Shown here piece after piece: positions 18,112 to 51,529 of a stretch of DNA of 64,000 nucleotides; within the stretch, counting starts at the first letter, position 1; each line of letters starts with the position of its first letter. The stretch comes from a bacterium (GTDB lineage Bacteria > Hinthialibacterota > Hinthialibacteria > Hinthialibacterales > Hinthialibacteraceae). The stretch lies in assembly GCA_963663405.2 (NCBI GenBank), contig CAXXSM010000118.1, positions 32,001 through 96,000 of the forward strand, in the 5' to 3' direction. The position numbers and the translations under genes are program-made. The notes beneath the pieces are model-generated. The model did no database searches. It saw only the letters and a list, made by a program, of their open reading frames with translations, and had not been told where the DNA came from.

Positions 18112-18380
18112 AATTCTCCTCCATCGATTATGTTCTATTCTCCAGAATAACGTATTTCAACAAAATCATCATAATAACACAAGGTGGATACAAGTTTAAA
18201 ACATTGCTCTCTAATCATTAGAAAAATTACCGCAAAATAACGTAAATATCATTCCATCCAATACGTCAAACAGAGCAATTCGCAGTCATAATCTCTGAAA
18301 ACATCCCCCTTCCCTTCTCTTGCGGCTACAATGCGAAACGGGAAACGGTTTGGTTTCTATTGATCCATACGGACGTGGTT

Positions 18381-20001
18381 ATGAGAAAACGTGATTCACT
18401 CCTTCGTTCAACAACGCTGTTCAGCGCCGCCACACTGATCAGCCGCTTTTTAGGGCTGGCGCGGGATTCGTGCATCGCCGCATTTATCCCTTCGGCTTGG
18501 CAGGATATATTTTGGGCGGGGATCAAAATTCCCAGCACTTTCCGTCAGTTATTCGCGGAAGGCTCTCTTTCAGCGGCGTTTATTCCTTTACTGACACGAA
18601 TCCGGGAACGCGAGGGAGAGAACAAAGCGCGGGAGGTAAGCCATGCGGTCTTCAATCTGCTCTTGATCACGGTTTTCACGATCGTCGTTCTCTTTATTCT
18701 CTTTGCGCCCTGGATTGTCCCGTTTCTATTGGATTTTCCATCCGATTCCGTCACTGTTTGGACGCCGGTCGCGGCGAAGACCACGATCCCAACAACGATT
18801 GAACTGGGAACCAACTGGAGGGTAGACGCCGGGATCTGGGTCACGCAGCTGATGTTTCCTTTCCTTCTATTCGTCGCGGTTTCCGCTTGGGCCATGGGAG
18901 TGCTGAATACGAATGGTTATTTCTTTATCCCCGCGCTGGCGCCCGCTTTTTTCAATTTGATCCTAATTATCGGATGCGTAATCGGGTCTTTTTTATTCCA
19001 AGCACCAGATTTTATGGTTTTTCTCAGCGCCGCAGTATTGCTGGGAGGTTTCATGCAATTCGCCGTACAGATCCCCCAGGCCTGGAAAATCCGCTACCTC
19101 CCACCACGTCCCGTTTCCCCCTTTCATCCACAGGTAGGCGCCTTTCTCTTCCTGTTAGCGCCCAGTATTTTGGGATTGGCCGTCTATCAGATCAACGCCC
19201 TTATCTCGCAAACCTATTTCGCCTCCAAATTCGGGGGAAGGTGGGATCTCCATAATGACCTACGCGCACCGGCTGGTTCAGTTTCCCCTTGGCGTTGCCG
19301 GTGTTGCGCTCGCGACGGCGTCGTTTCCCCGCATCGCTGAACAATTCGAAAAGAAACAGGACCAGAAGGCGGCGCAGACATTTACAGCCGTGATAAAGTA
19401 TCTACTCCTTATCATGATTCCTTCCGCAGTGGGATTCCTCGTCTTGGGAGAGGACATTGTTGGCGCGATCTATGACCGGGGCTTCTTTCATGAGCGGGGC
19501 TGGTTGCGCCCCACATATCTCACGCTTAGTTTTTACTCCTTAGGTTTATTCGGCTATGCGATGGTCAAAGTGCTGGCGCGGGTATTTCAGGCGCAGCATG
19601 ATTTTTATACTCCAGTCAAAACAGGACTCATTGGCGTAGCGCTCAATATTCTTCTTTGTGTATTGTTTATCTGGCGCGAATGGCCACTCTGGACATTGGC
19701 GTTGGCGTCTTCCATCGCCAGTTCGGCCAACGCGGGATTGATGCTGATTATTCTTCGTTGGCGGATGCGTGATCTGCGTCTGTTTTCAACGTTTCGTTTC
19801 TCGGTTCGAGTTTTACTGGCTTCGGTGGGAATGGCGCTTACATGCGCGCTGTTTCTCGCATTCTGTCCCATTGAGGGTGGAACTCTGTTATACTATTCAA
19901 TCCGCGTCGCGCTTGGAATAGCCGTCAGCGCCGCCGCTTATGGGGCCTTTGGATATTGGCTTTTTTACGAAGAACTGATGCGTTTGATAAAACGGAAATA
20001 G
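18381..20001 (+). pseudogene. murJ: lipid II flippase MurJ (MviN), apparent +1 frameshift in G5 at 19233-19237
   Basis: SRFLGLARD, RQLFAEG, YAHRLVQFPLG, TPVK motifs. Removing one G gives FGEGGISIMTYAHRL and 539 aa. Probably an assembly error. Confidence 0.88.
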
Positions 20002-22306: not shown

Positions 22307-23482
22307 ATGAAATTTAAGTATTGGCGTTTAATTCCATGGCTCACCGCTACACTCCTCGTGGGATTCTTTCTCTATCTAACGTGGGGTTCATCCATTCCCC
22401 CGATGATCGCTGCGGTACAATCCGGATCACTCGAAAAAGTACAAAAATGTATTCGCTATCAAGCGGATCTGAACGCTCGCAGGCAAGATGGTTTCACTCC
22501 CCTTATGCTCGCGGTGACGATGGGCCGGGACGATATGGTTCAAGCCTTAATTGACGCAGGCGCCATAAGCAATGATGAAAATGTGTTATCACTAGCTATA
22601 CGCTTTGATAAACCAGCCTGTATAAAGGCGCTGGCCGACGCGAACGTGGATATAATCACCACCGCGATTCATCCACAATTACTCAGAGCGATTCACAATA
22701 ACAGTGTTGAATGCGTAAAAATCCTTCTTGATCATGGCGCGGATGTCAATCAATTTTATTACGACGATTTTCCATTGCTGATCGCTTGCCAAAAAAATTC
22801 GATCGAAATCGTTAAAATTCTATTGGAACGGGGCGCCAAAGTGAATGGTGTTCTTGCGGAAGTGGCGGACCAGGATGATTTTGAGATCTTTGAATTATTA
22901 CTCGCCCATGGAGCGGATATCAATGAAACAGGCATCTCCAACAAAAGCCGATTGCTCCGTTTTACGCCCTTATCGTTCGCTGCGTACAAAGGGAAATTAA
23001 AAAATATTCAATTCTTTCTTGACCATGGAGCGAAATTCAAACCCGCGGCAAAAAACCAATGGAACGCGCTTCGAAATGCGGCTCATAATGGTCATCTTGA
23101 AGTGGTCAAATTCCTCTTTGAGAAAGATCTTGATACACAAGGCGCTCTCGTCTCCGCGGCGCAAAATGGTCATCTTGCAGTGGTCAAATTTCTCTTGGAG
23201 AAACACGCCGATCCCAAAGGCGCTTTAGCCTCCGCGGCGTCAAAAGGCCATCTCGAAGTGATGAAAGTCCTCTTACAACACGGGGTGGATTCGAACGAAC
23301 TCCATGCCGCTCTCAGGGCGGCGGTCGCTCTTGGACAATTGGACGCGGTTCAGTTATTGATTGATTCAGGTGTGGATGTCAACATACGAAACCAGGATGG
23401 GAAAACCGCCCTGCAATGCGCGATTGAATACAAAGATGTCGAAATCGCGAACCTCCTCAAACAAGCCGGCGCAGTCGAGTGA
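22307..23482 (+). CDS. ankyrin-repeat protein with N-terminal signal/TM
   Basis: Multiple TPLxxA...GxxxxVxxLLxxGAD repeats. Confidence 0.9.
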   Translation: MKFKYWRLIPWLTATLLVGFFLYLTWGSSIPPMIAAVQSGSLEKVQKCIRYQADLNARRQDGFTPLMLAVTMGRDDMVQALIDAGAISNDENVLSLAIRFDKPACIKALADANVDIITTAIHPQLLRAIHNNSVECVKILLDHGADVNQFYYDDFPLLIACQKNSIEIVKILLERGAKVNGVLAEVADQDDFEIFELLLAHGADINETGISNKSRLLRFTPLSFAAYKGKLKNIQFFLDHGAKFKPAAKNQWNALRNAAHNGHLEVVKFLFEKDLDTQGALVSAAQNGHLAVVKFLLEKHADPKGALASAASKGHLEVMKVLLQHGVDSNELHAALRAAVALGQLDAVQLLIDSGVDVNIRNQDGKTALQCAIEYKDVEIANLLKQAGAVE

Positions 23483-23640
23483 TCTCGAAGAATCCGATCC
23501 GTCAACTACACTCATCCTCATATTTTTTTAATATTTTTCTCAAAGAATACATCCGTGGGTTGTTGATGAAAATCACACTCAGTATTATGAGTATAAGCGC
23601 AAAAGCGCCATGTTTTGTCATACTATTAAGGAGCGATACT

Positions 23641-24141
23641 ATGCGGATGTCGCTTGGCAAACCCACGCCTCCTTCAGACGATCGCCGGTGGAAACTTGTT
23701 GGAGCGGCGATGCGCCGTCACGGTTTTCAGCCCCATGCGTTGATTGAAACGCTGCACTCGGTACAAGGCGCATTCGGATATTTAGATGAGGACGCGTTCC
23801 GTTTTGTCGCCAGTTCTCTTCGCGTCCCCCTCAGTCATGTTTATGGTGTCGCCACGTTTTACCATTTTTTTAAACTCAAACCCCAAGGCGAACACACCTG
23901 CGTTATTTGTATGGGAACCGCGTGCTACATCAAGGGCGCAAATAAAATTCTAGAAGCCGTTCATGAAGAGTACGACATCAAACCGGGTGAAACGACCGAA
24001 GACGGCAAGCTCTCACTTCTGACCGCCCGCTGTATTGGAACTTGCGGGATCGCTCCGGCGGTTGTGTTTGACGGTGAGATCGTTGGAGGAGTCACTCCAG
24101 ACGACGCCTTAACCCGGATTCGGAGGTGGACGGAAAAATGA
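23641..24141 (+). CDS. hoxE: bidirectional NAD-linked hydrogenase subunit HoxE
   Basis: [22 protein letters not shown] and CIGTC [2Fe-2S] ligands; AAGGAG RBS before 23641. Confidence 0.9.
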
Positions 24142-25781
24142 CACCGGAAGAACTGATCCAAATCGCCGAGGACGAACGTGAATCCCGTCAAAAATATAAA
24201 TATACCCTTTCTGTTTGCACCGCCGTTGGATGCCTCTCATCCCACGGCGATAAAGTCGTCGAATCGCTGACCGAGGCGATCAAAAAAGAAGGCCGTGAAG
24301 AGGAATACCTCTGCAAAGGAGTCGGTTGTCTGGGCCTATGCTCCGAAGGGCCGCTGGTTCTTGTTGAACCGGATGGGCTGCTATACGGGAAAGTCAAACC
24401 CGAAGACGCGGAAGAGATCATTCAAAGCCTTGGTAAAGAACCGGTCAGCCGTCTACTTGTTCCGACAGACATCCCCTTCTTCCAAAAACAAGAAAAAATC
24501 GTATTGGAAAATTCCGGGAAGATCGATCCGACACGATTGGAAGATTATATCGCCGCCGATGGGTATGACGCCTTGATCCAAGTCATCACGGAGATGACAC
24601 CGGATGAAGTCATCGAAGAAATCGTCCACAGCGGCCTGCGTGGACGCGGGGGAGCCGGATATCCCACTGGCTTAAAATGGAGCACAGTCGCTAAAGGCAT
24701 AGGCGATACGAAATACGTCGTCTGCAACGCGGACGAAGGGGATCCGGGCGCATTTATGGATCGCAGCGTTCTCGAAAGCGATCCCCACCGGGTGCTCGAA
24801 GGCATGGCGATCGCCGCGTATGCGATCGGCGCCACGTTAGGCTATATCTACGTCCGCGCTGAATATCCACTGGCGATTGAACGGCTGCAAAACGCGATTA
24901 AGCAAGCGGAACGCGCCGGATTGCTTGGCAATCATATCTGCTCGACCACATTCGGTTTTAGCATCCAGGTCCGACTTGGCGCCGGCGCTTTTGTCTGCGG
25001 TGAGGAGACCGCCCTGCTCGCTTCAATCGAAGGAAAACGCGGTGTGCCTCGCCCAAGGCCTCCCTACCCAGCCGTAAGCGGACTGTGGGGTTGTCCCACA
25101 CTTATTAATAATGTAGAAACTTTCGCCAACATCGCGCCCATTATTCGGAAGGGCGCTGAGTGGTACGCGAATATCGGCACGGAAAAAAGCAAAGGTACGA
25201 AAGTCTTCGCTCTCGCCGGCCGGGTCAATCATACCGGCTTGATCGAAATCCCGATGGGGGTTTCTCTCCGTGAAATTATCTTTGAAATCGGCGGTGGGAT
25301 TCCAGAAGACCGTCAATTTAAAGCGATTCAGACAGGCGGCCCATCCGGAGGATGCATTCCCGAACAACATCTCGATGTTTCCGTCGACTATGAATCCCTG
25401 AATGAACTAGGCGCGATTATGGGTTCCGGCGGTATGATCGTTATGGATGAAACATCAAGTATGGTCGATGTCGCCAAATTCTTCATGGAATTCTGCATGA
25501 CGGAATCGTGTGGCAAATGCGTGCCGTGCCGCGTAGGGACAGCCCAAATTTACAATTTCTTATGCAAAATCATGGACGGGAGAGCGTCGCCCGACGATTT
25601 GGAATTCCTTGAGAAACTCTGCAATATAGTGAAAGAAGCGAGTTTGTGTGGATTGGGGCAGACCGCGCCCAATCCGGTTCTCAGCACGCTTCGTTATTTC
25701 CGCCATGAATATCTGGATTATATCGTCAAAAAAGATACGCGCGCAGAAATTGGTGAGGCGCTGTCAACCAAGGAGGCGTAG
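24138..25781 (+). CDS. hoxF: diaphorase flavoprotein HoxF (NuoF-like)
   Basis: [35 protein letters not shown]...C; ATGA overlap with hoxE. Confidence 0.92.
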
Positions 25782-25783
25782 AG

Positions 25784-26503
25784 ATGAGCGCGTCGATCAG
25801 TGTTGTAACCTTTAAAATCGATGAGAAAGACGTCAGCGCCCGGTCGGATGAAACCATCCTTGAAGTCGCCCGCCAGAATGGAATCTTTATTCCAACACTC
25901 TGTTATCTTGAAGGATTGACTCCCATTGGGGCGTGCCGGCTTTGCATGGTTGAAATCAAGGGATCACCGAAACTTTTCCCATCCTGCGTCACGCGCGTCG
26001 CGGAAGGCATCGAAGTGATCACCGACTCAAAACGTCTGTATAAATACCGGCTCCGTATTTTAGAATTTCTCTTTTCCGAACGCAATCATGTCTGTTCCGT
26101 CTGTGTCTCCAATGGGCATTGTGAACTGCAAACCCTCGCGGAAAAACTCGGTTTGACGCATGTCCGTGTCCCCTATTTATACCCCAATCAGCCTGTTGAC
26201 GCTTCCCACGAGCGATTTGTCGTGGATCATAACCGATGTGTCTTATGCTCGCGTTGCGTCAGAGTATGCGAGGAAATTGAGGGCGCTCATACCTGGGATA
26301 TCATGTCGCGGGGGATTAATTCCCGTGTCATTAACGACCTTAACAGCCGGTGGGGTGAATCGGAAACCTGCACCAGCTGCGGGAAATGCGTTCATGTCTG
26401 TCCGACTGGCGCTTTGTTCGAAAAAGGAAAATCGACCGCTGAAATGTTAAAGAAACAACAATTTCTACCGTATTTAACCTGGTTGAAAGAAGGGCGGAAA
26501 TGA
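25784..26503 (+). CDS. hoxU: diaphorase Fe-S subunit HoxU
   Basis: IPTLC...GACRLC, HVCSVC...C, CVLCSRC, CTSCGKC..CP. Confidence 0.92.
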
Positions 26504-27033
26504 GTAAATTGACATTCGCCACTGTTTGGCTCGATGGTTGTTCCGGTTGTCACATGTCCTTTTTGGATCTCGATCAGAGATTAATTGAACTCGGAGACGC
26601 CGTCGAAGTCGTCTACAGCCCTTTAGTGGATAACAAAGAATTCCCGATCGGTGTGGATATTACTCTTGTTGAGGGAGCGGTCAGCAGCGAAGAAGACAGG
26701 GATAAAATCACCATGATCCGGCAACGGACAAAAACCCTAGTCTCGCTTGGAGACTGCGCCGTGACCGCCAACGTGCCATCCATGAGAAATCCGTTTAAAG
26801 TGGACGCCGTGCTGGACCGCGCGTACAACGAGAACGTGACGATCAAATCCCAAATTCCAAACGAAGTCATTCCATCGTTGTTACCCTATTCCCGCCCGGT
26901 ACACGAAGTGGTTTCGGTCGATGTCTTTATCCCCGGCTGTCCACCCCCGGCGGACGTGATCTACGAAGCGCTTACCGCTTTACTCGAAGGCCAGCCTCTC
27001 GATCTCACCGGCAAAACCCGATTCGGCGCCTAG
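26500..27033 (+). CDS. hoxY: group 3d hydrogenase small subunit HoxY
   Basis: [20 protein letters not shown]; 177 aa. Confidence 0.92.
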
Positions 27034-27046
27034 GAGAACTTAAACA

Positions 27047-28474
27047 ATGGCAAAGAAAATTGTTATCGATCCGGTAACACGGATTGAAGGACACGCCAAA
27101 ATCACGATCCATTTGGATGACAGCGGCGCTGTACACGACGCCCAGTTTCATGTTACGCAATTTCGTGGATTTGAAAAACTGTGTGAGGGACGCCCCTTTT
27201 ATGAGATGCCCTCCCTGATGGCGCGTATTTGTGGGATCTGTCCGGTGGCGCATCTCGTCACATCGGCCAAAGCCTGCGATCATATCATGGCGGTCCGTAT
27301 CCCCGAAACAGCGTTCAATCTCCGGCGCATTTTGATCCTCGCTTCGATTCTCCAATCGCACGCGCTCAGCTTTTTCCATCTCTCCTCTCCCGATTTCCTG
27401 CTCGGAATGGATTCCGATCCCGCTAAGCGCAATATTTTCGAAATTATGAAATGCCATCCAACCTTGGCGAAAGATGGTGTCCGGCTGCGACAAATCGGCC
27501 AGCAGATCATCAAGTGGCTGGGAGGCAAGAAAATCCATCCCGCCTGGGTCGTTCCCGGCGGTGTCAACGAACCCCTTTCATCGGAACTACGCGACCGCAT
27601 CCTCGCGGTTCTCCCAGAAGCGTTGAGCATCACCCAGCGAAACTTGGATTGGTTTAAAAAGACCATCGACAAATTTCAACAGGAAATCCGCACTTTCGCC
27701 AACTTCCCTTCCCTCTTCATGGGATTGGTGAAACCGGATGGCGCGTTGGAAACCTATCATGGCAGCCTTCGTATTGTCGACGCCACCGGCAAGATTGTAG
27801 AAAACGGGCTGGATCCTTCTAAATTCAACGAATATATCGGAGAAGCGGTCGAATCCTGGTCCTATTTAAAATCCCCTTATTACAAACCATTAGGCTACCC
27901 ACAGGGCATCTACCGGGTCGGCCCCTTGGCGCGATTAAACTTGATCGATCATATCGGTTCTCCTCTCGCGGATCAGGAATGGGCGGAATTCCGGTCTCTC
28001 GAACGGGGCGCTGTGCTCAGTTCATTCCATTTCCATTACGCGCGCCTTGTTGAAATCTTGATGTGCGTCGAACGAATAGAACGCATCCTTAACGAGCCCG
28101 ACATTCTCAGCAAACACGTCCGCGCTTTTGCGGGAGTGAACAACCTTGAAGGCATAGGAGTAACCGAAGCGCCTCGCGGAACGCTGTTCCATCACTACAA
28201 AGTCAATGAGGAAGGCCTGATTACATGGGCCAATATGATTATCGCTACCGGCAACAACAATCTCGCCATGAACCGGGGGATCTTGCAAGCGGCGAAGCAT
28301 TACATCGACGGCAATAATATCACGGAAGGGATGCTCAACCGAGTCGAAGCTGTTATCCGTTGTTACGATCCGTGCCTGAGCTGCTCGACACACGCGCTGG
28401 GCCAGATGCCGATGCGCGTTCAACTCATCGGTCCCGATGGAGACTTGATCAGCGAACGCTGTAGATCCTCATGA
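27047..28474 (+). CDS. hoxH: group 3d [NiFe]-hydrogenase large subunit HoxH
   Basis: TRIEGH, L1 [16 protein letters not shown]2 DPCLSCSTH followed by a cleavable C-terminal extension. Confidence 0.94.
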
Positions 28475-38338: not shown

Positions 38339-41300
38339 TTGCAAAACTTTATGCCATACAAACAGATTTCCATCATATGTCTGATCGTCACATCGTTAAT
38401 GTGGCGTAATGTTAATGCTCTCGAGATTCCACATTGGCGATTCTGGACTCCAGAAGACGGCCTGACGGAATCGTGGACGGCGTCCATTACCCACTCCCCA
38501 TCGGATACGATTCTTGCGTCGCACGGTCAAGTGAAAACAATGAGCCGCTTAAATGGTTGGGGGGATGAGAATAATATTTTTGTTACACAAATTCCAAATC
38601 CAGCCCAAGGAGCGAAAGTCTACGAAACCGAATCAGGACAACTCTGGTCTATCATTCCCGGCGCGTTGCTGAACTTTGATCAATTGAGTGGCCAATGGAT
38701 TCGTATCGAAGTACCTGAAATCGGTATGGATTGGCCTTGGTTCCCAGAATCTGGTGAACCCAGATTATGTGACCGCTTTTACCCCATCGGCGATGATTCC
38801 ATTCTGATCCTGCTGCCTGAACAATTAATCCAGTTTCAACCATCCACGCGAACATCCATCACACTGCAAGCCGCCAGCGAATCAAGAATCGGCGCCTACA
38901 ATCGAATCTTCCCCTCTTGTAAAGGTGGTTTATGGATTACCGGAACGTATGGAGCGGCGAAACTCCATGTTAAGGATTCCACTCAATGGTCAGATTTTCC
39001 TCTCCCGGTCGGTATGGAACAACTACAACATCCTGTAGAAGGACAAAAGGCGGATCTCTACGCGGTAGCGTTTTCGATTTACGACCAACAGCGCGTATTA
39101 GTTCATCTGAGTGATTCTGAATGGAGGATCCGCTACAGTGAGGATGAACACTTGTTTCGTGGGTGGGCCGGAATGGATGGGAATGTATGGATCGAGTTAC
39201 GTGAAGATGATCAGTCCACTCTCATGCAAACCGATTATGGTCAGATGCAAGTTGAAGAAAAAAACGCCGTATTGGCGGGGATTTTGTTTGATGTGCTCCC
39301 CATTGAGGGAGGCGCGTTTTGGATTTCGACATCCGCCGGTTTAGCGCGTTATTCTCCCCCTTTGTGGAGAACGCCTCCAGCGATTCAACATATTCGCCCA
39401 AGAATTTACGCCATCAAGGAAGACCAAAAAGGACGTGTCTGGTTTTTGGGTCAAAACGTTTTGATTCTTTTTCATGAGGATAAATGGAAAACATTTGCCT
39501 TGCCGGAACGATATCGCACCTCCGTCAGTTACACGCAGGGATTGGCGCCGCTGCCGGATGGACGGATCGTTATCGCCCTTCCTTATTCGAAACGGATATT
39601 GGTCTTTCATCCGGAAACAGAAAAATTTGAAACAATCGAAAATTCTTCTGGCCGTGAAATTTGCCATCTATGCCCGCGTCAAGACGGGACTATCTGGCTT
39701 AGCGCCACCCAACAAGATGATACGAATGTTATCTATCGTCTGAATTATAGGGATACTTTTTTTCTCGAATTATATGACGGTCAAATATTCAAGACGGTTT
39801 TCTCCCAATCCTGGCAATCTCTCGGAACGATCCGCTATCTGCTTGAATGTTCCAATGGGGAATTATGGTTCGGGGGCACCGGACATCCTGGCCTCGCCCG
39901 TTATAACAAAGATCGCACATTTCAAATTATAGGACACAATGAAGCCTATGAAGGAAGCGGCGCGTTTTGCCTGCACGAACTCCCAAACGGGCATATCCTA
40001 ATTGGTGGGCGGAATCGGTTATTCGAATACAATGGAGAGTCATTCATATGCCTCCGCTCCGGTCTAGACCGGGTGAATTCAATTATAACGGATAACAATG
40101 GCGCGATTTGGGTAGCGTCAGGAACGGGACTTCATCGACTTGAAAATCAATCGTGGGTCACGTATACCGCTGATGACGGATTGCCGGTTTCGTTTATCTA
40201 TAATGTGTATCAGGATTCGAAAAATAATATCTGGGCCGGAACAGCGAATGGACTGAGCCTCTTCCATCCCGGCTCTGATCTAGATCCACCCCAGACATTT
40301 ATTCGAGATAAAGAAAATTTAATGGAAACCCCTCCGGGTGGGAATGTCCGGATCGTCTTTTCTGGGATGGACAAATGGAAGCAAACTCACCAAAGCCGTT
40401 TGCTATATTCAAGCCGGCTTGATGGGAAAGAATGGGCGCCGTTTCGGCCTAGGCAGGTCGCTGTTTTCAATGGATTGCCCTCTGGTTCCCACACATTTGA
40501 AGTCAAGGCGATGGATTTAAACTTAAATATTGATCCCTCTCCCGCCATGATCTCTTTCACGGTCTTACAGCATTGGTATCAAGTTCCCTTTTTTCTGATT
40601 TTGGCGTCTAGCGGGACGATTTTAATCCTGGTACTAATCGGTCTAGTGGCGCAGCGTCACATCCTGCTGGAGAGACGGGTAAAAGAACGAACCTCGGATC
40701 TTTCGAAAGCAAACCGGCAATTAACATTCGAACTGAGCGAACGCAAACGGCTTGAGAAAGAGATCCTGGAAATACGCGACCGGGAACAGCAACGCATTGG
40801 GCAGGATCTCCATGATGGTTTAATCCAGCACCTCACTGGAATCGAATATATCTCCAAATGGCTCGAGAAGCAGATGAAAACAGTTGCGCGGCCGGAGATG
40901 GAATATGCGGGGGAAATCTCACGCGAAATCCATAACGCCATTCAAGAAACCGAAGAGATCGCCAAAGGCTTGAATCCGGTTGTTTTGGAAACGGACGGTT
41001 TAGTGGAAGCCTTGCACGAGTTATCAGTACGGACCAAGCGTTTCTTTGATATTGATTGCCGTTTTACCGGGAAAGCGCCGGAGAACCTGGTAACCAATCA
41101 AACCACTACGTTTCATTTATACCGGATCGCACAGGAATGTATCAACAACGCGGTCAAACATGGACACGCCAATTGGATTGAGATGACTTTAGAATCCGTT
41201 GAAGATAAATTAACCTTGACGGTAACGGACAATGGTGAAGGATTTCCACCGGAATCGAAACAACGGCGGGGGACGGGATTACGTATAATGAGGTACCGGG

Positions 41301-41404
41301 CCGGTTTGATCGGGGCGGATTTAAGAATCTTGAATCGCCAAGAAGGCGGCGTTCAGATCGAGTGCGCTCTTCACCGGGAGATAATTCGAACGGAAAAGCA
41401 ATGA
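38339..41404 (+). CDS. membrane sensor histidine kinase (beta-propeller + Y_Y_Y periplasmic region, HisKA_3/HATPase)
   Basis: DGLP/W-GT-xGL propeller repeats, GSHTFEVKA, TM, RIGQDLHDG H-box, NNAVKHG, DNGEGF, GTGL. Confidence 0.9.
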   Translation: MQNFMPYKQISIICLIVTSLMWRNVNALEIPHWRFWTPEDGLTESWTASITHSPSDTILASHGQVKTMSRLNGWGDENNIFVTQIPNPAQGAKVYETESGQLWSIIPGALLNFDQLSGQWIRIEVPEIGMDWPWFPESGEPRLCDRFYPIGDDSILILLPEQLIQFQPSTRTSITLQAASESRIGAYNRIFPSCKGGLWITGTYGAAKLHVKDSTQWSDFPLPVGMEQLQHPVEGQKADLYAVAFSIYDQQRVLVHLSDSEWRIRYSEDEHLFRGWAGMDGNVWIELREDDQSTLMQTDYGQMQVEEKNAVLAGILFDVLPIEGGAFWISTSAGLARYSPPLWRTPPAIQHIRPRIYAIKEDQKGRVWFLGQNVLILFHEDKWKTFALPERYRTSVSYTQGLAPLPDGRIVIALPYSKRILVFHPETEKFETIENSSGREICHLCPRQDGTIWLSATQQDDTNVIYRLNYRDTFFLELYDGQIFKTVFSQSWQSLGTIRYLLECSNGELWFGGTGHPGLARYNKDRTFQIIGHNEAYEGSGAFCLHELPNGHILIGGRNRLFEYNGESFICLRSGLDRVNSIITDNNGAIWVASGTGLHRLENQSWVTYTADDGLPVSFIYNVYQDSKNNIWAGTANGLSLFHPGSDLDPPQTFIRDKENLMETPPGGNVRIVFSGMDKWKQTHQSRLLYSSRLDGKEWAPFRPRQVAVFNGLPSGSHTFEVKAMDLNLNIDPSPAMISFTVLQHWYQVPFFLILASSGTILILVLIGLVAQRHILLERRVKERTSDLSKANRQLTFELSERKRLEKEILEIRDREQQRIGQDLHDGLIQHLTGIEYISKWLEKQMKTVARPEMEYAGEISREIHNAIQETEEIAKGLNPVVLETDGLVEALHELSVRTKRFFDIDCRFTGKAPENLVTNQTTTFHLYRIAQECINNAVKHGHANWIEMTLESVEDKLTLTVTDNGEGFPPESKQRRGTGLRIMRYRAGLIGADLRILNRQEGGVQIECALHREIIRTEKQ

Positions 41405-42069
41405 ACACTCTCCGGAAAAAATCCATACGAGTGCTGATTATCGACGATCATCCCATACTGCGGCGTGGTTTGTCGTTGGTCATCAATCAGGAAGAGGATA
41501 TGACCGTTTGTGGGGAAGCGGAGAATGCGCAATCAGCGATCCGCGCGATCGAGTCCAGGGATCCCGATATCGCATTAGTCGATATCTCCCTTAAAGGGAT
41601 CAATGGAATCGAACTGATCAAGATGATCCGGAATCAATCGACTTTACCATTGCTGGTTTTGTCGCGGCATTCCGAAACGATTTACGCCGAACGAGCGATC
41701 CGCGCGGGGGCCAACGGGTATATTATGAAGCAGGAACCTACGGAACGGGTCATTGACGCAATTCGGAAAGTTATGCGGGGTGAGCGCTATTTAAGCGAAC
41801 CGATCGCTAAGTATATTCTTGATAAACGGTTCGATCTCTCTCAAAAAGAACCTATTTCGTTAGTGGAAATATTTAGCGATCGTGAGTTGCAAGTTTTTCA
41901 ACTAATCGGACAAGGTCTGCAACCTCGCCAAATCGCCAACGAACTCAATCTGAGCGTCAAAACGATTGAAACGTATCGCTCGAATATCAAACAGAAACTC
42001 AACCTTCAAAGCGCCGCCGATTTGATCCAATATGCGATCGAGTGGCAACGGACGGAAAACACGGAATAA
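41401..42069 (+). CDS. NarL/FixJ-family response regulator
   Basis: IDDHP, LVDIS, GYIMK receiver motifs; LuxR HTH SDRELQV...LSVKTIETYR; ATGA-coupled to the kinase. Confidence 0.92.
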   Translation: MNTLRKKSIRVLIIDDHPILRRGLSLVINQEEDMTVCGEAENAQSAIRAIESRDPDIALVDISLKGINGIELIKMIRNQSTLPLLVLSRHSETIYAERAIRAGANGYIMKQEPTERVIDAIRKVMRGERYLSEPIAKYILDKRFDLSQKEPISLVEIFSDRELQVFQLIGQGLQPRQIANELNLSVKTIETYRSNIKQKLNLQSAADLIQYAIEWQRTENTE

Positions 42070-43021
42070 TCCCCCCTTCCAACGGAAGATGCAACGATAC
42101 GATCACTTCCCATCTACATGCTTCCCAAAATTATAATAGATACTAAAATAGTAAAGAATTAGATGTTAACAATCTTTTTTATTTTGGAATATTTGTATGT
42201 CAAAGGGGATATTTATGACCAAAAAAATCACAATCGATCCGATCACCCGCATTGAAGGTCATTTATCGATTTCAGTCGACCTCAAAGAACAACAAGTTGA
42301 ACATGCGTATTGTGTGGGAGAAATGTTTCGTGGATTTGAAGTCCTATTAAAAGGACGCGATCCCCTGGATGCGCAGCAAATCACACAGCGGATATGCGGA
42401 ATCTGCCCCGTCTCTCATGGGATAGCGTCAATCGCCGCCCAAGAAGAAGCGTACAATGTTTCCGCGCCGGAGAACGGACGGATTGTAAGAAACCTGATCC
42501 TCGGCGCCAATTACTTGCAATCGCATATCACTCATTTTTATCATCTATCCGCGATTGATTTTATCGATATAACCACCATTCTTCACTATCAAGGAAAAGA
42601 TCACAAACTAACATCGTTAAAAGATTGGGTTCAAAATCAAATCCAGTCAAAAATGATATACCCAGCAACCCCTTTCTTACCGCGGTATGACGTTCACTAT
42701 CTTGATAACAACGATCTCAATTTAACAGCCATTAAGCATTACATCGACGCGTTGGAAATCCGACAGATCGCTCATCAAGCCGCCGCCGTCTTTTGTGGAA
42801 AAATGCCTCACGCCACCGCCTTGGTTCCCGGTGGCGTCACGGAACAAATCACAGCGTCTAAAATCGCGGAATACCGGTCGAAACTAAAACGTATTCTCGC
42901 ATTCATCGACCAGTGTTATCTACCCGATGTCACCGCTGTCGCGTCTTTGTTCCCGGATTATTTCACTCATGGCAAAGGAAATAATCATTTTTTAGCCTAT
43001 GGTGTATTTCATGAGCCCTTA

Positions 43022-44950
43022 GTGATCACGTAAAAATTAATTCCCATTTTCAGAGGAATGTAAAGTGTAGTTCAATTTACTTAAATTTTGATCCTTGACA
43101 ATGTTTAATTGTTTCATTTGTTCATTGGTTACAGTTTTTCCTTTTTTATATTTTTTCCGGACAAGATAAGCTTTGACTTTAAGACCGGTAGTGGTTTTTG
43201 TTGTTCGAATATAATTTAAGACAGTCTCATAACTATCAAGAGGCCTTCCTGCCCAGTTCTTACTTATCTCACTGAATAAGCGATGTTCAATTGGATTCCA
43301 TTTCGAACATCCCGCAGGATAATGAGAAACGGATACAGAAATACCATGAGGATCGCATAATTTGTGTTGAAGCCAATATTTCCATGTACGGCAATTTGAC
43401 CCATTACTCCCCCCTCCATCGGCCAGGATGAGTAAATGATTGGCTGATGGATATCGCTTTCGCCCTTCATAACGCCACCACTTTTCGACGCATTCGACAG
43501 CGAATTCGGGGGTGTCAAAAGAGGTCCCGACAAAAACCGTTCCACAGTTCGCTTGACAATCGTAAATCCCATAAGGAATCCCTTTGCCTTTCGCAGTCGA
43601 AGAAAAATCATGATCGGAAACCTCGATTGATTTTTGGGTCCATGTGGTTCCTTGATTTTTAAACGATCCAATTTTTTCTTTCTTTTTCGTATCCACACTT
43701 AAAATGGGATTGCCTTCTTGAGCGAATTGCTTTCGGATTTCTTCAATGTAAACAAATTGCTCATTTCGATCGTTGGAGGAAGCCGACGAAACACTTTTTT
43801 TATTCACCCGCAGAGAGAAATCCAATTGTTTCAAAATCCGAGCAACGGTTCGTTCGCTTATTTGGATGTCTAAGCGTTTGAGTTCTTCGGCCACTTTACA
43901 GCATGTCTTTCTGGTCCACTTCAGACCGGTCATCGGATCTCCCGCTGTTTCGTAATTCATTAATTCCTCAATGACATCTATGACTTTGTCAGTTTTTTTT
44001 CCACGGATTTTCGTCCGCCTCCAGGTTTACGTATGCGCTGAATCTCCACATCTTGCTCGATCAATTCACGGCGCCCTCGAGATACCGTGCCCACGTCTAT
44101 CCCCATGAAATTGGCGATGAGGCGGTCTCCCCCATGTCCCCATCGGAGCGATTCAAGTCCAGCATATAAACGGCGTTGCTTTTCATCCAAAAGACTCATA
44201 AATAGAATGATCGCCGCTTTCAATTCATCGCTTGTCGATTCCGGTGCAATTCGTTGGGATTCAAATTCTTGTTGGATACGACGGGCCGTCACTTGTTGTT
44301 TTTTGATAGTGGATTGAGAAGAGCAATAAAGGTATCGTCCACAGATTTTTTCGCGATAGAGTCGTCCAGTATTGATCAATTGGAGTAGAGCTTCTTTACA
44401 TCCTACATGAAGAATGTCTTGAAGCTCTGCAACGGAATATCCCGACTTGGAATGATTCACGATAAATTCAAGAGTCGATAGCAAAGTACCATGCTGAGAA
44501 AAATAAACCGATTGATAAGACCACAGACCCTGCTCATCGAATTTGACAAGTTGTTGAATCGTGTAAAATCGTCCCCCATGAGAGTAACTCGTATGATAAT
44601 TGAGTTCCTTCAACTTACGGAATACCGTTATGTTTGTGTTGGTACCCAAAACCTTTTTCATCTCTTCCATCGTTGCTATTTTTTGCGTTTTCAACATTAG
44701 TTCTAACTCTTTGGCATGGTAAAGTTTCGTATTCATCTCAACCTCAAAATGTTATAGTGTCGCCTCTATAAGCGATACTATAACATTTAGAATGAAAAAT
44801 CAATCCTTCTCGCTTATTATAAAAAAACTGTTTTTTACCTTTTATTAATAGCCTTTTTGGAAATTTTTCTATGTAAGTAAAAGAAATGTATTGTATTTCT
44901 AGTATGTTTGAGATTCGCTAATTAATCCGTAGTTATTTTTGCGCCAACCC
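43022..44950 (-). mobile_element. ISAzo13-family insertion sequence (1929 bp) with TTA target duplication
   Basis: TTA at 43019-43021 and 44951-44953; imperfect terminal IRs GTGATCACGTAAAAATTAA / GGGTTGGCGCAAAAATAAC; long hairpin at ~44747-44788 upstream of the transposase. Confidence 0.88.
43037..44736 (-). CDS. ISAzo13-family transposase split into two ORFs (43978-44736, 43037-43960) joined by a -1 shift at A8
   Basis: SVDTKKKE, HDF, ADGGGSN, SKWNPIEHRLFS signatures; upstream ORF has LDEKQRRLYAG...GGGRK. A -1 shift at T8 43993-44000 gives KSVEKKTDKVID...ETAGDPM. Confidence 0.88.
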
Positions 44951-45677
44951 TTAATGGATGGAGAACGTTTTTTCCCAGCGGGTGTACTGCGGGATGACCG
45001 CCTCGAACCATTGGATGTAAGTAAAGTCAATGAACAAATCCGGTTTTCCTTTTTTTCATCTCCATCCAGTCTCGCGCCTTCCCAAGGGGAAACCTCCCCA
45101 TCCCCCGATAAGAAGGACGCGTATTCCTGGTTAAAAGCGCCCCGTTATGATGGAACAGCCATGGAAGTGGGCTCCTTGGCACGGCTCTTGATCGCATACA
45201 AGAAGAATCAACCCAAATCCGTTAAAACAATCCTGGACGATTTTTTACATGCGCATTCCTTAACGTTATCAGACCTTGTATCCACGATGGGACGGCACGC
45301 CGCACGAGCGATCGAATCTCAAATCGTCGCCCGGCAATGTTTGGAATGGATCGATCAATTGGTTCCCGGCAAACCGGCGTTTCAAGATTATTCCATTCCC
45401 AATCGGGCGGAAGGCGTTGGATTGACCGAAGCGCCACGAGGAGCGTTGGGCCATTGGATACAAATCCAGAATGGAAAAATCGGGCGGTATCAATGCGTCG
45501 TCCCAACAACATGGAATTGTTCGCCCCGTGACGACCAGGAACAACCCGGCCCCGTCGAACAGGCTCTCGTGGGGATTCCAGTCACCGATGAGAAGAATCC
45601 GATTGAAGTCGCGCGGGTGGTTCGTTCATTCGATCCATGTCTCGCATGCGCCGTTCATTAAGTAAGGAGAGAATCGA

Positions 45678-46577
45678 ATGGATAAATTCACACGGAGAGA
45701 ATGGTTGCAATTCGGCGCAAAACTTTGCGCGCTCATGGGGATTGAAACAACATCAATACCACGCATCGTCCAGGCGCTGGAATCCATCCAAACAGGAAAT
45801 ACACCAGTCGTATGGTTACAAGGACAGAGTTGTTCGGGTTGTTCCGTCTCTTTCATTAACAGTGACGCTCCCGATCCGGTTGAAATTCTAACTCAATATA
45901 TCTCTCTCCGCTTTCATTCCACCCTATCAACAGCGACGGGCGCCTTGGGAATGGAGATGATCGAAAACGTTATTGAAAATGAAAAATTTTACTTAGTGGT
46001 TGAAGGAAGTGTTCCCGCCAAAATGCCCAAGGCTTGTTTAATGGGCCATAAACCCATCACAACATGGATTGAAATGGCCGCGAACAAAGTAACCGCGTTA
46101 ATTGCGATTGGATCCTGCGCGGCCTTTGGAGGCATCCCCGCCGCGGAAAACAATCCAACCGGCGCGATCAGCGTTCCCGATTTCATCAAAGAACGCCGGA
46201 TCAACATTCCTGTTATCCGGTTGCCTGGATGTCCTTGTCATCCGGATTGGTTTGTAGGGACTCTCGCTTACACACTCGCCTATGGATTACCGGAATTAGA
46301 TTCCTACCAACGCCCAACGATGTTTTATAAACGGTTGATTCACGATCAATGTCCGCGTTTCGCCGACTATGAACGGGAACGGTTTGCCCAAACTTTTGGC
46401 GATGAAGGGTGTTTATTCAAACTGGGCTGCGCCGGCCCAATCACACATGCGGATTGCACATTGCGCCATTGGAATTCTGGAGTCAATACATGTATCCGCG
46501 CGGGTGCGCCGTGTGTCGGTTGCGCGTCAGAAACGTTTGCGAGGAAGTCCCGCTTTCCTCTTTATACAAAATCGTAA
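45678..46577 (+). CDS. Tat-exported [NiFe]-hydrogenase small subunit, no membrane anchor
   Basis: FTRREWL Tat motif; proximal CSGC, GSCA, PGCP; distal HDQC..GCL..GC; medial C...CIRAGAPCVGC; polar C-terminus. Confidence 0.92.
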   Translation: MDKFTRREWLQFGAKLCALMGIETTSIPRIVQALESIQTGNTPVVWLQGQSCSGCSVSFINSDAPDPVEILTQYISLRFHSTLSTATGALGMEMIENVIENEKFYLVVEGSVPAKMPKACLMGHKPITTWIEMAANKVTALIAIGSCAAFGGIPAAENNPTGAISVPDFIKERRINIPVIRLPGCPCHPDWFVGTLAYTLAYGLPELDSYQRPTMFYKRLIHDQCPRFADYERERFAQTFGDEGCLFKLGCAGPITHADCTLRHWNSGVNTCIRAGAPCVGCASETFARKSRFPLYTKS

Positions 46578-47108
46578 TCAATATAACTACAAGAACGGTG
46601 AAACATGAAACTGCATACAAAATTGATCCTCTTCCTTATCATCGGTCTTTCGATCGTCGTTTTTTTAGGACAATTATTTCAATACAACACCGCCAGTCAT
46701 CGACTCAATCAATTTTCTCAAAACCTTCAAACCATCCTGACGGAACGGGAAGATCAAAACGCCCGGACGATCTTTGAAATGCTGGAAAGCTCCGTCGCTG
46801 GTTCGTTGGAACGAGGGGAGATGGAGAAATTCAAGCGCACACTCGAAGAACAAAGCCGTGTCGAAGGCATTTTAGAATTTTCACTCTTTAGTAAAACTGG
46901 GCGCGTTACGCATTCATCCGATTCTTCAAATGTGAATCGTGAATTGGAACGAAACTTATTTATCGAATTAACACAAAATCCAGACCGACGTATTGTGAAT
47001 TCCGAACAATACATCGAAATCTATCAACCACAAGTTGTGACACCCGATTGTATTCGTTGCCATATGGCTTGGGTGGAAAATGAAATCGGGGGAGTCACTT
47101 ACTTACGT

Positions 47109-49342
47109 TCAGACCTCCTGATCTGGGGGATATTGATCTGACACCAATTGGTAAACGAGACGTAGATTCGTGCCAGGATAAATGGTTTCGGTTTCATTCA
47201 ATTGAGCGGCCAAATGACGGGCGGCTTGATCGGAAAGGCGGTTGGTCAAGTGATGGAGCCGAACCGTGAGAATCTCTTTTTCTTCATCGGGAATCAGATC
47301 CGCCTCGGTGGTCATGATTTCCCGCGCCAACGAACGCGCATCGTCTCCCCGGCTCAGCACCTCCCGCAGGATTGCCACCATCGCCGTTTCCGCCCGATAC
47401 GCAATCATTCGAATCGTATCCATGAATTGTTTCTTCGCTGGAGCCAATTGGTGAAATTTTGCCTCCTCTGGCAAGTCCACAAACGCGATATGCTTTTTCG
47501 TTTGCTTCCGGCTCCGCTTGAACTCATCGAGTTGTTTCTCCATCCCTCCGATCTCTTCAAGGAGGGCGCCTTTCTGGATTTCATAGCATTCGATCTCTTT
47601 CGGATCGGAGGATTCCTTTAGGACAAGGGCGCCGAATTCCGCTTGCTTTCGAGTCTTTTTCCCCGCCAGGCTTTTGATCTGACTTTCCAATTTCCGATAG
47701 GCCGGATTCACCACTTTCACCGTCTCATCCGGCAAGACCGTTTCATACCCGATAAGTCCATCTAAATGAAAGTGTTCCATCATGTACCGAAAGAAGTTTT
47801 CCTGACACCAACGCGCGAACATATGCGCCGCCAGTTGACTCGCATCCGATGTATAATCCGTACTGATCACAGCGGTTTGATGCCCTGTATCCCCCAACTT
47901 GCGAATCTCCCGCACCCAGATTTTTCCTCCCAGAAAGACGCCTCTCTCGGCCAAGCGCATCGGCGATTCATGCCCACCAGGCAGACGCACATTCACTGTC
48001 TCGAATTCTGAAACTGGCCAATCTTCTCCCTGAAACTTGCGGTACGTTTGACACGCGATCCGCGAATCCCACATCTGAGCGAAGAATCCGGGGCTATAGC
48101 CTTCCCGGTCGAACACCAGGACGAACCGGTGGAGATAGGGATTGGATTCAAGGTTTTCGGCCGTGGGTTGATGGGGAACATCTTTTAGCAACTGTGGAAC
48201 AATGTCTTGTTTGAGCCGATCCAACAAGCCGGTGGTGAATGGAGTGCTCACCACAAAGAAGGGGCGGCCTTCGCCGTCGTTCACCCAATAGTCGGTGAGT
48301 CCACGCAAACATAATCGTTGACGCGCGACATAGCGGCGGGGCAGTTTCGTTTGCGAACCGTGATAGACGCGGACATGACCATCGACATATAAAACGCCCG
48401 CCGCGTCCGGATCCGCCTCCATCCACTCCCGGGACAATTCGTCCCCCCATTCTTTGATCTGGTCTGGTTGGGCGAGAATTTTGATTTTTTCCCGCAGGGT
48501 CCGCACTTCGGGAATTCGATCTAAGCCCAGTAACTTGCCCCCTTCCCCCGCGGGATGATAGCGCAACTGTTCCGGCGTTTTGATCCGCGTCAACGCCATG
48601 AAAGCCAACACAATAAAAATGTGGACGCAACTGTAAAATCCTTTGGGGAGAGAAAAGTTCTTCGAGACATTCTTCAGCAGCCCGTTGGCGAGTAACGCGG
48701 GCATCGCCCATAACACGCCGCCTTGCGCCACATCCAATTCCGTCTCGAAACGAGTCGGGGCTTCCTCCAACTGCCCGGTCGCCGCGCAGACCCGCTCCAC
48801 CATTCGCGTACAGCCCATCCCCATCGCCGCTTGGCTGTCTTCTACGCTTCGCTCGCTTTTCGGGCGGCCTCCGGCATCGTTTTTTTTAGCGGCTCCACCA
48901 GGCGGCCGGCTTGGATCGCCTTATTCAACGTATTCCGCTTAAGGCCCAACTGATCGGCGATCTCCGCTCGAGAGAGCCCCTCGTTCAAGAACTCTTGCGC
49001 TTGCTGGAGGACGTCTTTTGTCAAGACATGCGCGCCTCGCGTTCGAGGCGTTTCAAAAAACGCCGCCGCTCCGCCTTTCCGGTATTTCTTGACCCACCGC
49101 TTCACGCTGATCGCGCTCACGCCAAACGCTCGGACAATCTCCATTTGCGTGCATTGCCCGTTCACGACAAACTGACTGGTAATCAAACGGAAACTCTTTT
49201 GATCGGTTTCCGGATGCGTGTAAATAGGAAAGGCGCCATGAAAATAATAGACCGAACCGTCCTGCTTCCGGTACGAGAGTACATCGGTGATGTAGCCTTC
49301 CTCGACATCGGCAAAGTGGGGTAAGAATCCTTGTGGCATCAA
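47109..49342 (-). CDS. transposase split into an HTH ORF (48842-49342) and a DDE ORF (47109-48824), joined by a -1 shift at A8
   Basis: YVDGH, VFDREG, RWCQENFF DDE-like motifs; -1 shift at T8 48880-48887 gives LKKNDAGGRPKSERSVED...MGMGC. Confidence 0.85.
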
Positions 49343-49440
49343 CCGGGCTCCTTTTCGGATCGAGCATTTTTATCCCCAAAAAGGTATCTTGCCAAAATCA
49401 TCAACTCTACGGAATCCCCCGGCCCAGCTCAGGAGGTCTG
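47110..49440 (-). mobile_element. insertion sequence (2331 bp, ISNCY-like/unclassified DDE) with ACGTT flanking duplication
   Basis: Terminal IRs CAGACCTCCTGA(T/G)CTGGG; ACGTT at 47105-47109 and 49441-49445 (alternatively a CGT duplication with 1-bp longer IRs). Confidence 0.9.
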
Positions 49441-50605
49441 ACGTTATTCCACCCAAGCGATGGAACAGGTCAAAGAACAAAACCTGACAACCTTTCAAGA
49501 ATTGAAATCCGCGACATTTCGAAACGGTATTATTGTTGTCATTCTAATTATCGTTTTTTGTTTATTGGTAATCTATTCACTCGTTCGTTATCTCGTATCC
49601 AAACCACTCAATGAGTGTGTTGACTTGGCGCAATCCGTCGCGTCGGGCGATCTCACTCAACGCCTGGAAATCAAAACAAAAGATGAAATTGGGCAATTGG
49701 TTCAGTCTTTGAATACGATGACAGAAAAACTGCAAACGACGATCGGCCGGATCTATCAAGCGACGGAACAAGTCGCGGCTGGATCGGATCGATTGTCTTC
49801 CTCGTCACAGAATTTAGCGGCGGCCGCCTTGGAACAATCTTCCAGCCTGAACGAAACAGCCAGTTCGTTAGACAACCTTATGAATTCAATCCGCCAGAAC
49901 GCAGACAATGCGAAAACAACAGATCAAGTCACTCAAACCTCCGTCGAACAAGCGGATCAAGGCCAAATCGCCGTCTCCAAGACCGTTGATGATATGAAAA
50001 AAATCGCGGAACAGATTGGAATCATCAATGACATTACAGATCAGACCGATCTTCTCGCTCTGAATGCGGCGATCGAAGCCGCGCGGGCGGGGGAGATGGG
50101 AAAAGGATTCGCGGTGGTGGCTGTGGAAGTGCGTAAACTGGCGGAACGAAGCCAAAGCGCGGCTAAAGAAATCGTCGCCTTAGTCAAAAAAAGCGTTTCA
50201 CAAGCCGAAAACGCAGGCGCGCGGATTCAGGAAATCTCTCCAACCATTCAAAAAGCTTCTCAATTGGTTCAAGAAATCACATCGATTTGTGACGAACAAT
50301 CAAAAATGTCCGAACAGATCCGCCATGCGTTAACTCATCTAGAATCCATCTCGAAACAAAACCAAGACACGAGCGATGAAACCGCCTCCGCAAGCGAAGA
50401 ACTCGCCTCCCAAGCCTTCTCCATGCAGGATTTAGTCAGACAGTTTAAAATGGATCAGCGTTACTGAACAGCGCCAGAGAGTACCATATCTAGCAGAAAT
50501 AAAACACAGCAAGATCATCCAGAACTATCCCCAAAAATACAATAGGTCTATGATATCTATTCAGGAAGAAAGAATAGTATACTTGACTCGATTTCAAAGG
50601 AATGT

Positions 50606-51529
50606 TTGCGAAAAATGAATAACAATAGAGAATTAATTCAAGATTTAAAAGAACTTAATAGATTAGAGAGTCAATTTTTAAAACTCTCTAATGAAGCAAA
50701 AACACCTGAAACTGAAGAGGAAATGATCCAAAATTTTGAAAATATAGGAAATATATCAATAAATGCATTTAAGTTAAAAGAGAAAATATCAACAAAAATA
50801 GCTTTTATTGATGATCCAATCATAGATATAAATAATAAGATAATTGATTTTGATGGAACAGATTATAAAGATATAGAAATTACATTTAAAAAGATAAAAG
50901 AAGATAAAAAATTTTACTCTATAGATTTTCTCTGCGAATATTATAAAATTCTCAGATCTTCCAGTATTTTCGAATCTAATGGAACTAAACAAGAATTGCC
51001 ATCAACACTCGATTTATCAACATTGAATCTATTCGAAGAAAAAGATCCAGAATATTTTCATGATCATTTTCTTGGCAATAGTCAATATAGAATAACTGAA
51101 TATTATTATAATAGATTGCGCATTTCCCCTTTATTAGTATCGAAAAACATACCGAGAAGACTGGATGATTATTTTTCTGAAATTAGGGAAACGTATTCTT
51201 GGTGTTTATACAAAGCTTGTATTTCTTTAAGCCGTGCTTTGTTAGATCACTGTATAACTGAGGAGTTAATAAAAAAGCCAAGTTATAAAAAGGAAAAAAC
51301 AGAGATAAAGAAAATAGAAGGTAGATTTGATTTTGATATAAGAATAGATTTAGCTTTAAAATTAAGAATTATCACCGAGAAATTAACAGAAGATGCTCAT
51401 ACAATAAGAAAAAAAGCAAATATAATTTTGCATGATCCAAAAAAGCACGTCAAAAATAACGACAAAGAAACTTACGATTTAATTCATAAAACTGTCGGTA
51501 TTCTTGAATGGATTTATAGAAAGAAATAG
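50606..51529 (+). CDS. low-GC protein with a C-terminal DUF4145/HEPN-like domain
   Basis: Very AT-rich; YKACISLSRALLD and IRKKANIILH (R-x3-N-x3-H) pattern. Confidence 0.55.
   Translation: MRKMNNNRELIQDLKELNRLESQFLKLSNEAKTPETEEEMIQNFENIGNISINAFKLKEKISTKIAFIDDPIIDINNKIIDFDGTDYKDIEITFKKIKEDKKFYSIDFLCEYYKILRSSSIFESNGTKQELPSTLDLSTLNLFEEKDPEYFHDHFLGNSQYRITEYYYNRLRISPLLVSKNIPRRLDDYFSEIRETYSWCLYKACISLSRALLDHCITEELIKKPSYKKEKTEIKKIEGRFDFDIRIDLALKLRIITEKLTEDAHTIRKKANIILHDPKKHVKNNDKETYDLIHKTVGILEWIYRKK

Follow-up and report, generated by a model that had tools for sequence, protein, structure and literature searches.

The window analysed here, a 64,000-nt stretch of contig CAXXSM010000118.1 (assembly GCA_963663405.2, positions 32,001 to 96,000 of the forward strand) from a bacterium of the Hinthialibacterota, carries a three-gene operon at 42215..50467 encoding a [NiFe]-hydrogenase large subunit, its small subunit and a chemoreceptor with a heme c attachment motif. 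The first and third genes are each interrupted by an insertion sequence (IS), the second is intact, and the operon copy in this genome is inactive. The gene set of which this operon is a broken copy is kept intact in many uncultured anaerobic bacteria. This set is a real, conserved module, and apparently an undescribed one. We consider the module probably to be a periplasmic H2 sensor, in which an exported hydrogenase would reduce the receptor heme and the receptor would signal. A more specific proposal, to which we give slightly less than even odds, is that a group-1-derived lineage of sensory [NiFe]-hydrogenases, exported by the twin-arginine translocation (Tat) pathway, docks on a dedicated CxRCH heme-Cache domain and reduces its heme directly, forming a modular extracytoplasmic H2 receptor that was repeatedly re-wired to chemoreceptor classes and hybrid kinases.

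In silico restoration, i.e. deletion of each IS along with one copy of its target duplication, resulted in a 504-aa large subunit whose final residue is the L2 His, and in a 508-aa methyl-accepting chemotaxis protein (MCP) with two hydrophobic segments, CxxCH at residue 149 and Met at residue 73. The start of the large subunit was set by an upstream GGGG and the N-termini of homologs. A sequence-only reading of this DNA had described three in-frame genes with gaps of 16 and 27 nt, as well as a receptor composed of a transmembrane (TM) segment, a periplasmic CIRCH motif, a second TM segment, HAMP and a signalling domain. The former was reproduced by script and the latter upon IS deletion. Its statement that the operon holds no cytochrome b, membrane anchor or maturation protease is likewise confirmed, as none was found in the locus.

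The phylogenetic placement of the enzyme was addressed with a large-subunit tree of 100 rows, built by a quick method and including no group 2b reference. Here, the window falls with 40 other rows into a single clade close to group 1a, supported by the SH-like approximate likelihood ratio test (SH-aLRT 90). The sensor domain of the receptor is encoded nearby in 35 of these 41 clade members, compared to 0 of the 59 other rows. It should be noted that the sensor had served to pick 19 of the 35 sensor-linked members; of the 21 clade members selected by way of the hydrogenase, 15 have the sensor nearby.

The distribution of the gene set was followed at increasing distance from the window. The small subunit was found in 12 of 40 relatives at 55-67% identity, and five of these 12 show the intact large-small-receptor order. 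In G020 the receptor gene precedes the hydrogenase genes, in G021 the same sensor resides on a hybrid kinase two genes downstream of the hydrogenase, and in G011 and G022 the receptor is encoded elsewhere in the genome, beside cheA. The closest named homologs of one relative's large subunit are labelled Candidatus Omnitrophota. A GTDB scan, performed as a large-subunit motif search with taxa taken from record titles, revealed the same trio in records of Desulfobacteraceae, Desulfurivibrionaceae, Deferrisomatales, Deltaproteobacteria, Verrucomicrobia/Opitutaceae and Phycisphaerales among the matches listed (at least 80). The sensor profile was also run against an evenly drawn sample of 401 genomes of Desulfobacterota, where it identified 33 places in 26 genomes; 30 of these places were inspected and three weak ones left out. 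The 21 strongest (E ≤ 2.3e-41) have large- and small-subunit genes directly upstream; the nine weaker places do not. A small-subunit profile returned 21 places at E ≤ 1e-95 in the same sample, identical to the sensor-linked 21, with no match between 1e-95 and 1e-127. Since the profile had been built with these 21 sequences included, and no more than six candidates were scored in each genome, the scan serves to show whether unlinked members had been missed and does not amount to independent discovery. All told, the clade occurs in 20 of the 401 genomes.

Of 174 candidate ORFs flanking these loci, 110 were selected and scanned with Pfam, with an ORF picking that is crude in GC-rich loci. Among them, neither a cytochrome b or c3 nor a maturation protease or a GGDEF family was detected. 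What the scan did bring up was a single di-heme peroxidase (L064), hyp genes at L039 and L046, and cheA, the latter as a neighbouring gene in L025, L026, L041, L045, L047 and L170. CheA is present in 40 of the 42 genomes searched and cytochrome c assembly in 24 of 25. Intact homologs are syntenic with heme-c receptors, with no respiratory cytochrome partner among the flanking ORFs scanned. The module proposed in the sequence-only reading stands insofar as the trio is conserved, and has to be qualified for a minority of loci that lack the sensor or the heme motif (see below). Two further observations concern related loci. At L044 (5068-13777), two divergent hydrogenase copies are found, with two tandem heme-c MCPs after one of them and hypF nearby; this contig also carries a standard group-1 enzyme. 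At L060, L063, L065 and L069, histidine kinase and receiver genes come after other group-1a-like hydrogenases, which have the small-large order and the C-terminal extension; these loci may be a second signalling-linked set.

The hallmarks of [NiFe]-hydrogenases are all present, i.e. the CxxC motifs of L1 and L2, the C-terminal His, and three Fe–S ligand sets in the small subunit. The N-terminus of the latter, MDKFTRREWLQ, is a twin-Arg leader, and no C-terminal hydrophobic anchor was found in the small subunit of the window. The medial-cluster Cys is kept and the medial cluster is predicted to be of the 4Fe–4S type. NF033181 and HysA were the best NCBIfam matches, placing the enzyme nearest to the group 1a NiFeSe enzymes, and the closest PDB structures are respiratory group 1a NiFeSe hydrogenases (E 1e-131; 1e-66 for the group 2a enzyme Huc). 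Combined, these matches point to a group-1a-like enzyme. Across the clade, the gene order is large-small wherever both genes were seen together, and a twin-Arg leader is found in 29 of 29 small subunits (alignment A3), none of which has a C-terminal anchor. The large subunits carry the L2 motif S(F/Y)DPCx(A/S)C(A/S)(V/I)H and lack the C-terminal extension in 41 of 41 cases, all ending at the His. Both the extension and the small-large order of group 1a are consequently absent. The extension is naturally absent in the sensing groups 2b and 2d, and also in 4c, 4e and 4g, with group 1 not listed in the passages available (PMC7294309). An extension-less large subunit is typical of H2-sensing enzymes (PMC7294309) and was counted in favour of an H2 sensor. 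Membership in group 2b was ruled out by the export leader, the group-1a-like sequence and unmatched gas-channel residues, while the lack of the extension does match. Membership in group 2c was ruled out by a differing L2 motif and by the flanking ORFs, which include no GGDEF family. The sequence-only reading, which set the operon beside groups 2b and 2c, is corrected here: the enzyme is group-1a-like and related to neither.

The model of the sensor (predicted local distance difference test, pLDDT, 85) shows a single Cache domain with the CxxCH motif on a short helix between strands 3 and 4 (elements E136-144, H147-152 and E161-170). This helix is the defining element of the sCache_heme domain (PMC12889525). 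Foldseek matches are Cache domains, including those of GSU0935 and GSU0582 (3B42, 3B47), and the sequence of TM segment, sensor, TM segment, HAMP and signalling domain is that of a transmembrane MCP. PF11845 and PF21563 match 13 and 7 of 34 sensors, weakly and below the cut-offs (best E 0.0037 and 0.00035, respectively). The CxxCH motif is invariant in all 34 linked sensors aligned (A5), three heme-less receptors aside, and so is a Met located 80 residues before the heme His. In GSU0582 and GSU0935, Met60 binds the heme on reduction and leaves on oxidation, and the heme potentials of these Geobacter domains are -156 and -251 mV (PMC8396549). For comparison, hand arithmetic puts the H2/H+ couple at about -240 to -270 mV for 1-10 nM H2. 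The motif takes the form CxRCH in 34 of 34 linked sensors as well as in seven of seven unlinked sensors of enzyme-bearing relatives, and contributes to the signature of the subfamily, SLxRGEM...CxRCH. Conversely, the middle Arg is replaced in 12 of 12 weaker stand-alone paralogs. One may guess that this Arg docks the hydrogenase; shared ancestry would give the same pattern.

Sensor and hydrogenase also vary together. Over 496 pairs, small-subunit identity follows sensor identity (rho 0.75) more closely than it follows the identity of the signalling domain (rho 0.33), both values being inflated by relatedness. As sensor and signalling domain lie in one gene, linkage alone does not explain this gap. 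The three main groups of the large-subunit tree recur in the sensor tree, whereas the signalling-domain tree mixes them and includes several length classes. Compared to its relatives, the receptor of the window is ~33% identical in the signalling domain and ~49% in the sensor. Moreover, five hydrogenase-bearing relatives have a second copy of the sensor on an unlinked hybrid kinase, followed in four of the five by the gene of a receiver protein, as in G021. The chemotaxis output proposed in the sequence-only reading agrees with the MCP in the operon; given that the same sensor is also found on hybrid histidine kinases, the output is not only taxis. A pairing of a sensor hybrid kinase with a conserved 433-467-aa receiver protein was observed in L034 (10117-14251), L189-L191 and L193. 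The C-terminal part of this receiver protein has no Pfam match and contains two CxxC pairs in L034.

A sequence of events can be proposed for the intact module. The active enzyme would be exported via Tat and oxidise H2 in the periplasm. The distal cluster would then hand electrons on to the c-type heme of the receptor, either directly or via a small carrier. Reduction of the heme may recruit the invariant Met as sixth ligand, as in GSU0582 and GSU0935, and TM2 and HAMP would shift. The signal would finally reach CheA or, in the case of a sensor carried by a hybrid kinase, a response regulator.

Several observations weigh against an H2 sensor of this kind. The coupling between enzyme and receptor is predicted here from genes and models, and a fused sCache_heme domain has been characterised as a sensor of nitric oxide (NO; PMC12889525). 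Five of the 12 enzyme-bearing relatives have no adjacent sensor. A full-length sensor was not found in G023, G024 and G025 (77-93% complete), in which CheA is present; L038 has neither sensor nor CheA, and the MCP of L066 lacks the sensor domain. The receptors of L040, L198 and L199, from a planctomycete sample, have lost both CxxCH and Met while the operon is kept. Judging from these sequences, the three represent a heme-free variant of the module. Nor is the lack of an extension unique to the clade, as the extension-less group-1 large subunits L057 and L080 fall outside of it. The gas-channel pattern of group 2b is not kept, with Val in 40 of 41 clade members (Ile in the window) and, in the HFY segment, Leu or Ser in place of Phe throughout. 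Bulky Ile and Phe residues at these positions presumably make up the narrow gas channel of group 2b. Lastly, the contrast in rho is not specific, because MCP signalling domains shuffle often.

The strongest alternative, in our view an unlikely one, is a soluble periplasmic uptake hydrogenase that feeds the general cytochrome pool, with the co-transcribed receptor reading the periplasmic redox state (energy taxis) and not acting as a dedicated partner. Respiratory enzymes are the closest solved structures, and G000 has nine ORFs with three or more CxxCH motifs. The enzyme persists without the sensor in G023-G025 and L038. In the window's order, 11 of 11 genomes have no other group-1-type enzyme, which is consistent with a function in uptake and speaks against sensing. 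Outside this order the picture differs: of 24 non-kin carriers, 17 have a further group-1-type enzyme besides the clade hydrogenase. An uptake function also has to account for the lack of any respiratory partner gene among the flanking ORFs and for a sensor subfamily that is tied to this clade, not to other hydrogenases. Still less probable is a receptor for NO, CO or O2, where the hydrogenase merely keeps the heme ferrous or co-expression lets the cell avoid enzyme-poisoning gases. Fused sCache_heme domains bind NO tightly (PMC12889525), and GSU0582 and GSU0935 bind both CO and NO, displacing the Met (PMC8396549). The NO-sensing example is predicted to be five-coordinate (PMC12889525), whereas the Met is invariant here; gas sensing, moreover, needs no particular hydrogenase clade, and stand-alone paralogs exist. 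Signalling by contact, as from HoxBC to HoxJ or from a binding protein to its receptor, with the heme as an accessory, is the least probable of the three: receptors without the heme motif still lie in the operon and still have the Arg of CxRCH, and their small subunits swap the second proximal-cluster Cys for Asp or Glu (3/3), but CxxCH and Met are invariant in the remaining 34 linked sensors.

The features of the interrupted operon are compiled in Table 1. The first element (IS-A) is bounded by TTA target duplications and has a 100% identical copy on contig C47, which is interrupted too. The second (IS-B) shows 19-nt inverted ends, CGT duplications, and 11 further full-length copies in the genome at 93-100% identity. 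In light of these near-identical copies elsewhere in the genome, both insertions are probably recent. All four IS junctions are spanned by short-read contigs from one sample (runs X1/X2), which may be the one the genome came from; among these contigs no empty-site joint is listed.

Table 1 Features of the interrupted hydrogenase–chemoreceptor operon (positions in the window)
Feature	Position	Strand	Remarks
Large subunit, 5' part, with L1 motif RICGIC	42215..43021	+	PF00374 positions 1-252; NF033181 and HysA best matches
IS-A, ISAzo13 family, 1929 bp	43022..44950	-	NF033519, PF07592; ORFs 43978-44736 and 43037-43960
Large subunit, 3' part, ending DPCLACAVH-stop at the L2 His	44954..45661	+	PF00374 positions 261-508
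Small subunit, uninterrupted, 299 aa	45678..46577	+	Twin-Arg leader, three Fe–S cluster ligand sets
Chemoreceptor, 5' part: TM1 and periplasmic single-Cache sensor	46605..47108	+	Interrupted
Met73 codon, predicted distal heme ligand	46821..46823	+	Predicted from invariance in alignment A5 and analogy to GSU0935 Met60
Heme c attachment motif CIRCH	47049..47063	+	CxRCH in 34/34 linked sensors
IS-B, 2333 bp	47109..49441	-	Helix-turn-helix ORF 48842-49342; PF21804 transposase 47109-48824
Chemoreceptor, 3' part: sensor end, TM2, HAMP, MCP signalling domain	49445..50467	+	HAMP and MCPsignal matches

The host assembly is 82% complete and contains cheA/W/R/B, flagellins and a cytochrome c assembly gene, in agreement with the host background on which the sequence-only reading depended. 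No hypD, hypE or hypF was detected at this completeness; all 24 relatives that were searched for HypD have it. The tatC gene (C91) is split over two frames, murJ is found in two overlapping ORFs (18360-20001, + strand), and two frames are likewise seen for a cheB (C146) and, at the start of C118, for an mvhA-like gene, reflecting either assembly indels or gene decay. An intact-looking hoxEFUYH cluster for a cytoplasmic bidirectional hydrogenase lies 14 kb upstream of the operon (23479-28474, + strand). Directly upstream and on the same strand, a beta-propeller sensor kinase and a NarL-type regulator are encoded (38339-42069, +), which are not conserved with the module. The receptor gene is directly followed by an AT-rich 307-aa ORF (50606-51529, +) without Pfam or NCBIfam match and then by a convergent MoxR/DUF58/DUF4159 operon.

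Taxis toward H2 has been shown in Methanococcus maripaludis, with the receptor not named in the part available (PMC3817446); for a sulfate reducer it is no more than suspected (PMC12004927). The gene set offers a candidate H2-taxis receptor together with an enzyme partner, and points to individual residues for mutation, which makes the question directly testable; as the copy in the window is dead, experiments need an intact ortholog. If the H2-sensor reading is true, it would provide a molecularly defined receptor for bacterial hydrogen taxis and add a sensory subgroup within group 1, and metagenome surveys that read group 1 as respiratory would be wrong for this clade. It would also supply an electron donor for a heme-c chemoreceptor, which the available parts of the sources do not name for GSU0582/GSU0935 or DcrA. 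No description of the operon was found in the full-text literature, a search that left subscription journals mostly uncovered and supplements aside. A neighbourhood survey tabulates 87 MCP genes near hydrogenase-related genes and, in the part available, discusses none (PMC12727194), and the word "hydrogenase" does not occur in the main text of the sCache_heme preprint (PMC12889525).

In comparison to known systems, HydDB, in the parts available, assigns sensing roles only to [NiFe] groups 2b and 2c and to [FeFe] groups C1-C3 (PMC5037454). Like HoxBC-HoxJ and HupUV-HupT of group 2b, the enzyme described here has two subunits, no extension and no respiratory partner, and is encoded with a signal transducer (PMC5037454, PMC7294309). 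Group 2 enzymes are cytosolic (PMC4853749); unlike group 2b, the clade is group-1a-like, has a twin-Arg leader and the large-small gene order, and is encoded with a membrane receptor that exposes a heme-c Cache domain to the periplasm. The enzyme may thus be called a sensory hydrogenase by working analogy, not as a member of group 2b or 2c. Group 1a enzymes such as HysAB of Desulfovibrio are its best NCBIfam and PDB matches, and have the Tat leader and the medial-cluster Cys in common with it. It differs in having Cys, not Sec, at L2, in the missing extension and in the reversed gene order, and a receptor gene stands where cytochrome or protease genes would be. H2 sensing has been proposed from linkage to signalling genes for [FeFe] group C2, "chemotactic (putative)", and for [NiFe] group 2c, "diguanylate cyclase-linked (putative)" (PMC5037454), as it is here, albeit for a different enzyme class or group; the L2 consensus of group 2c is SFDxCLVCTVH. 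On the receptor side, the single Cache fold and the CxxCH helix are common to the sCache_heme (DUF3365/Tll0287; PF21563) receptors GSU0582, GSU0935 and DcrA, and the Met-to-His spacing of ~80 residues is close to the 84 in GSU0935 (PMC8396549). Unlike these receptors, the sensor described here falls below the Pfam cut-offs, has a signature of its own, and is tied to a hydrogenase.

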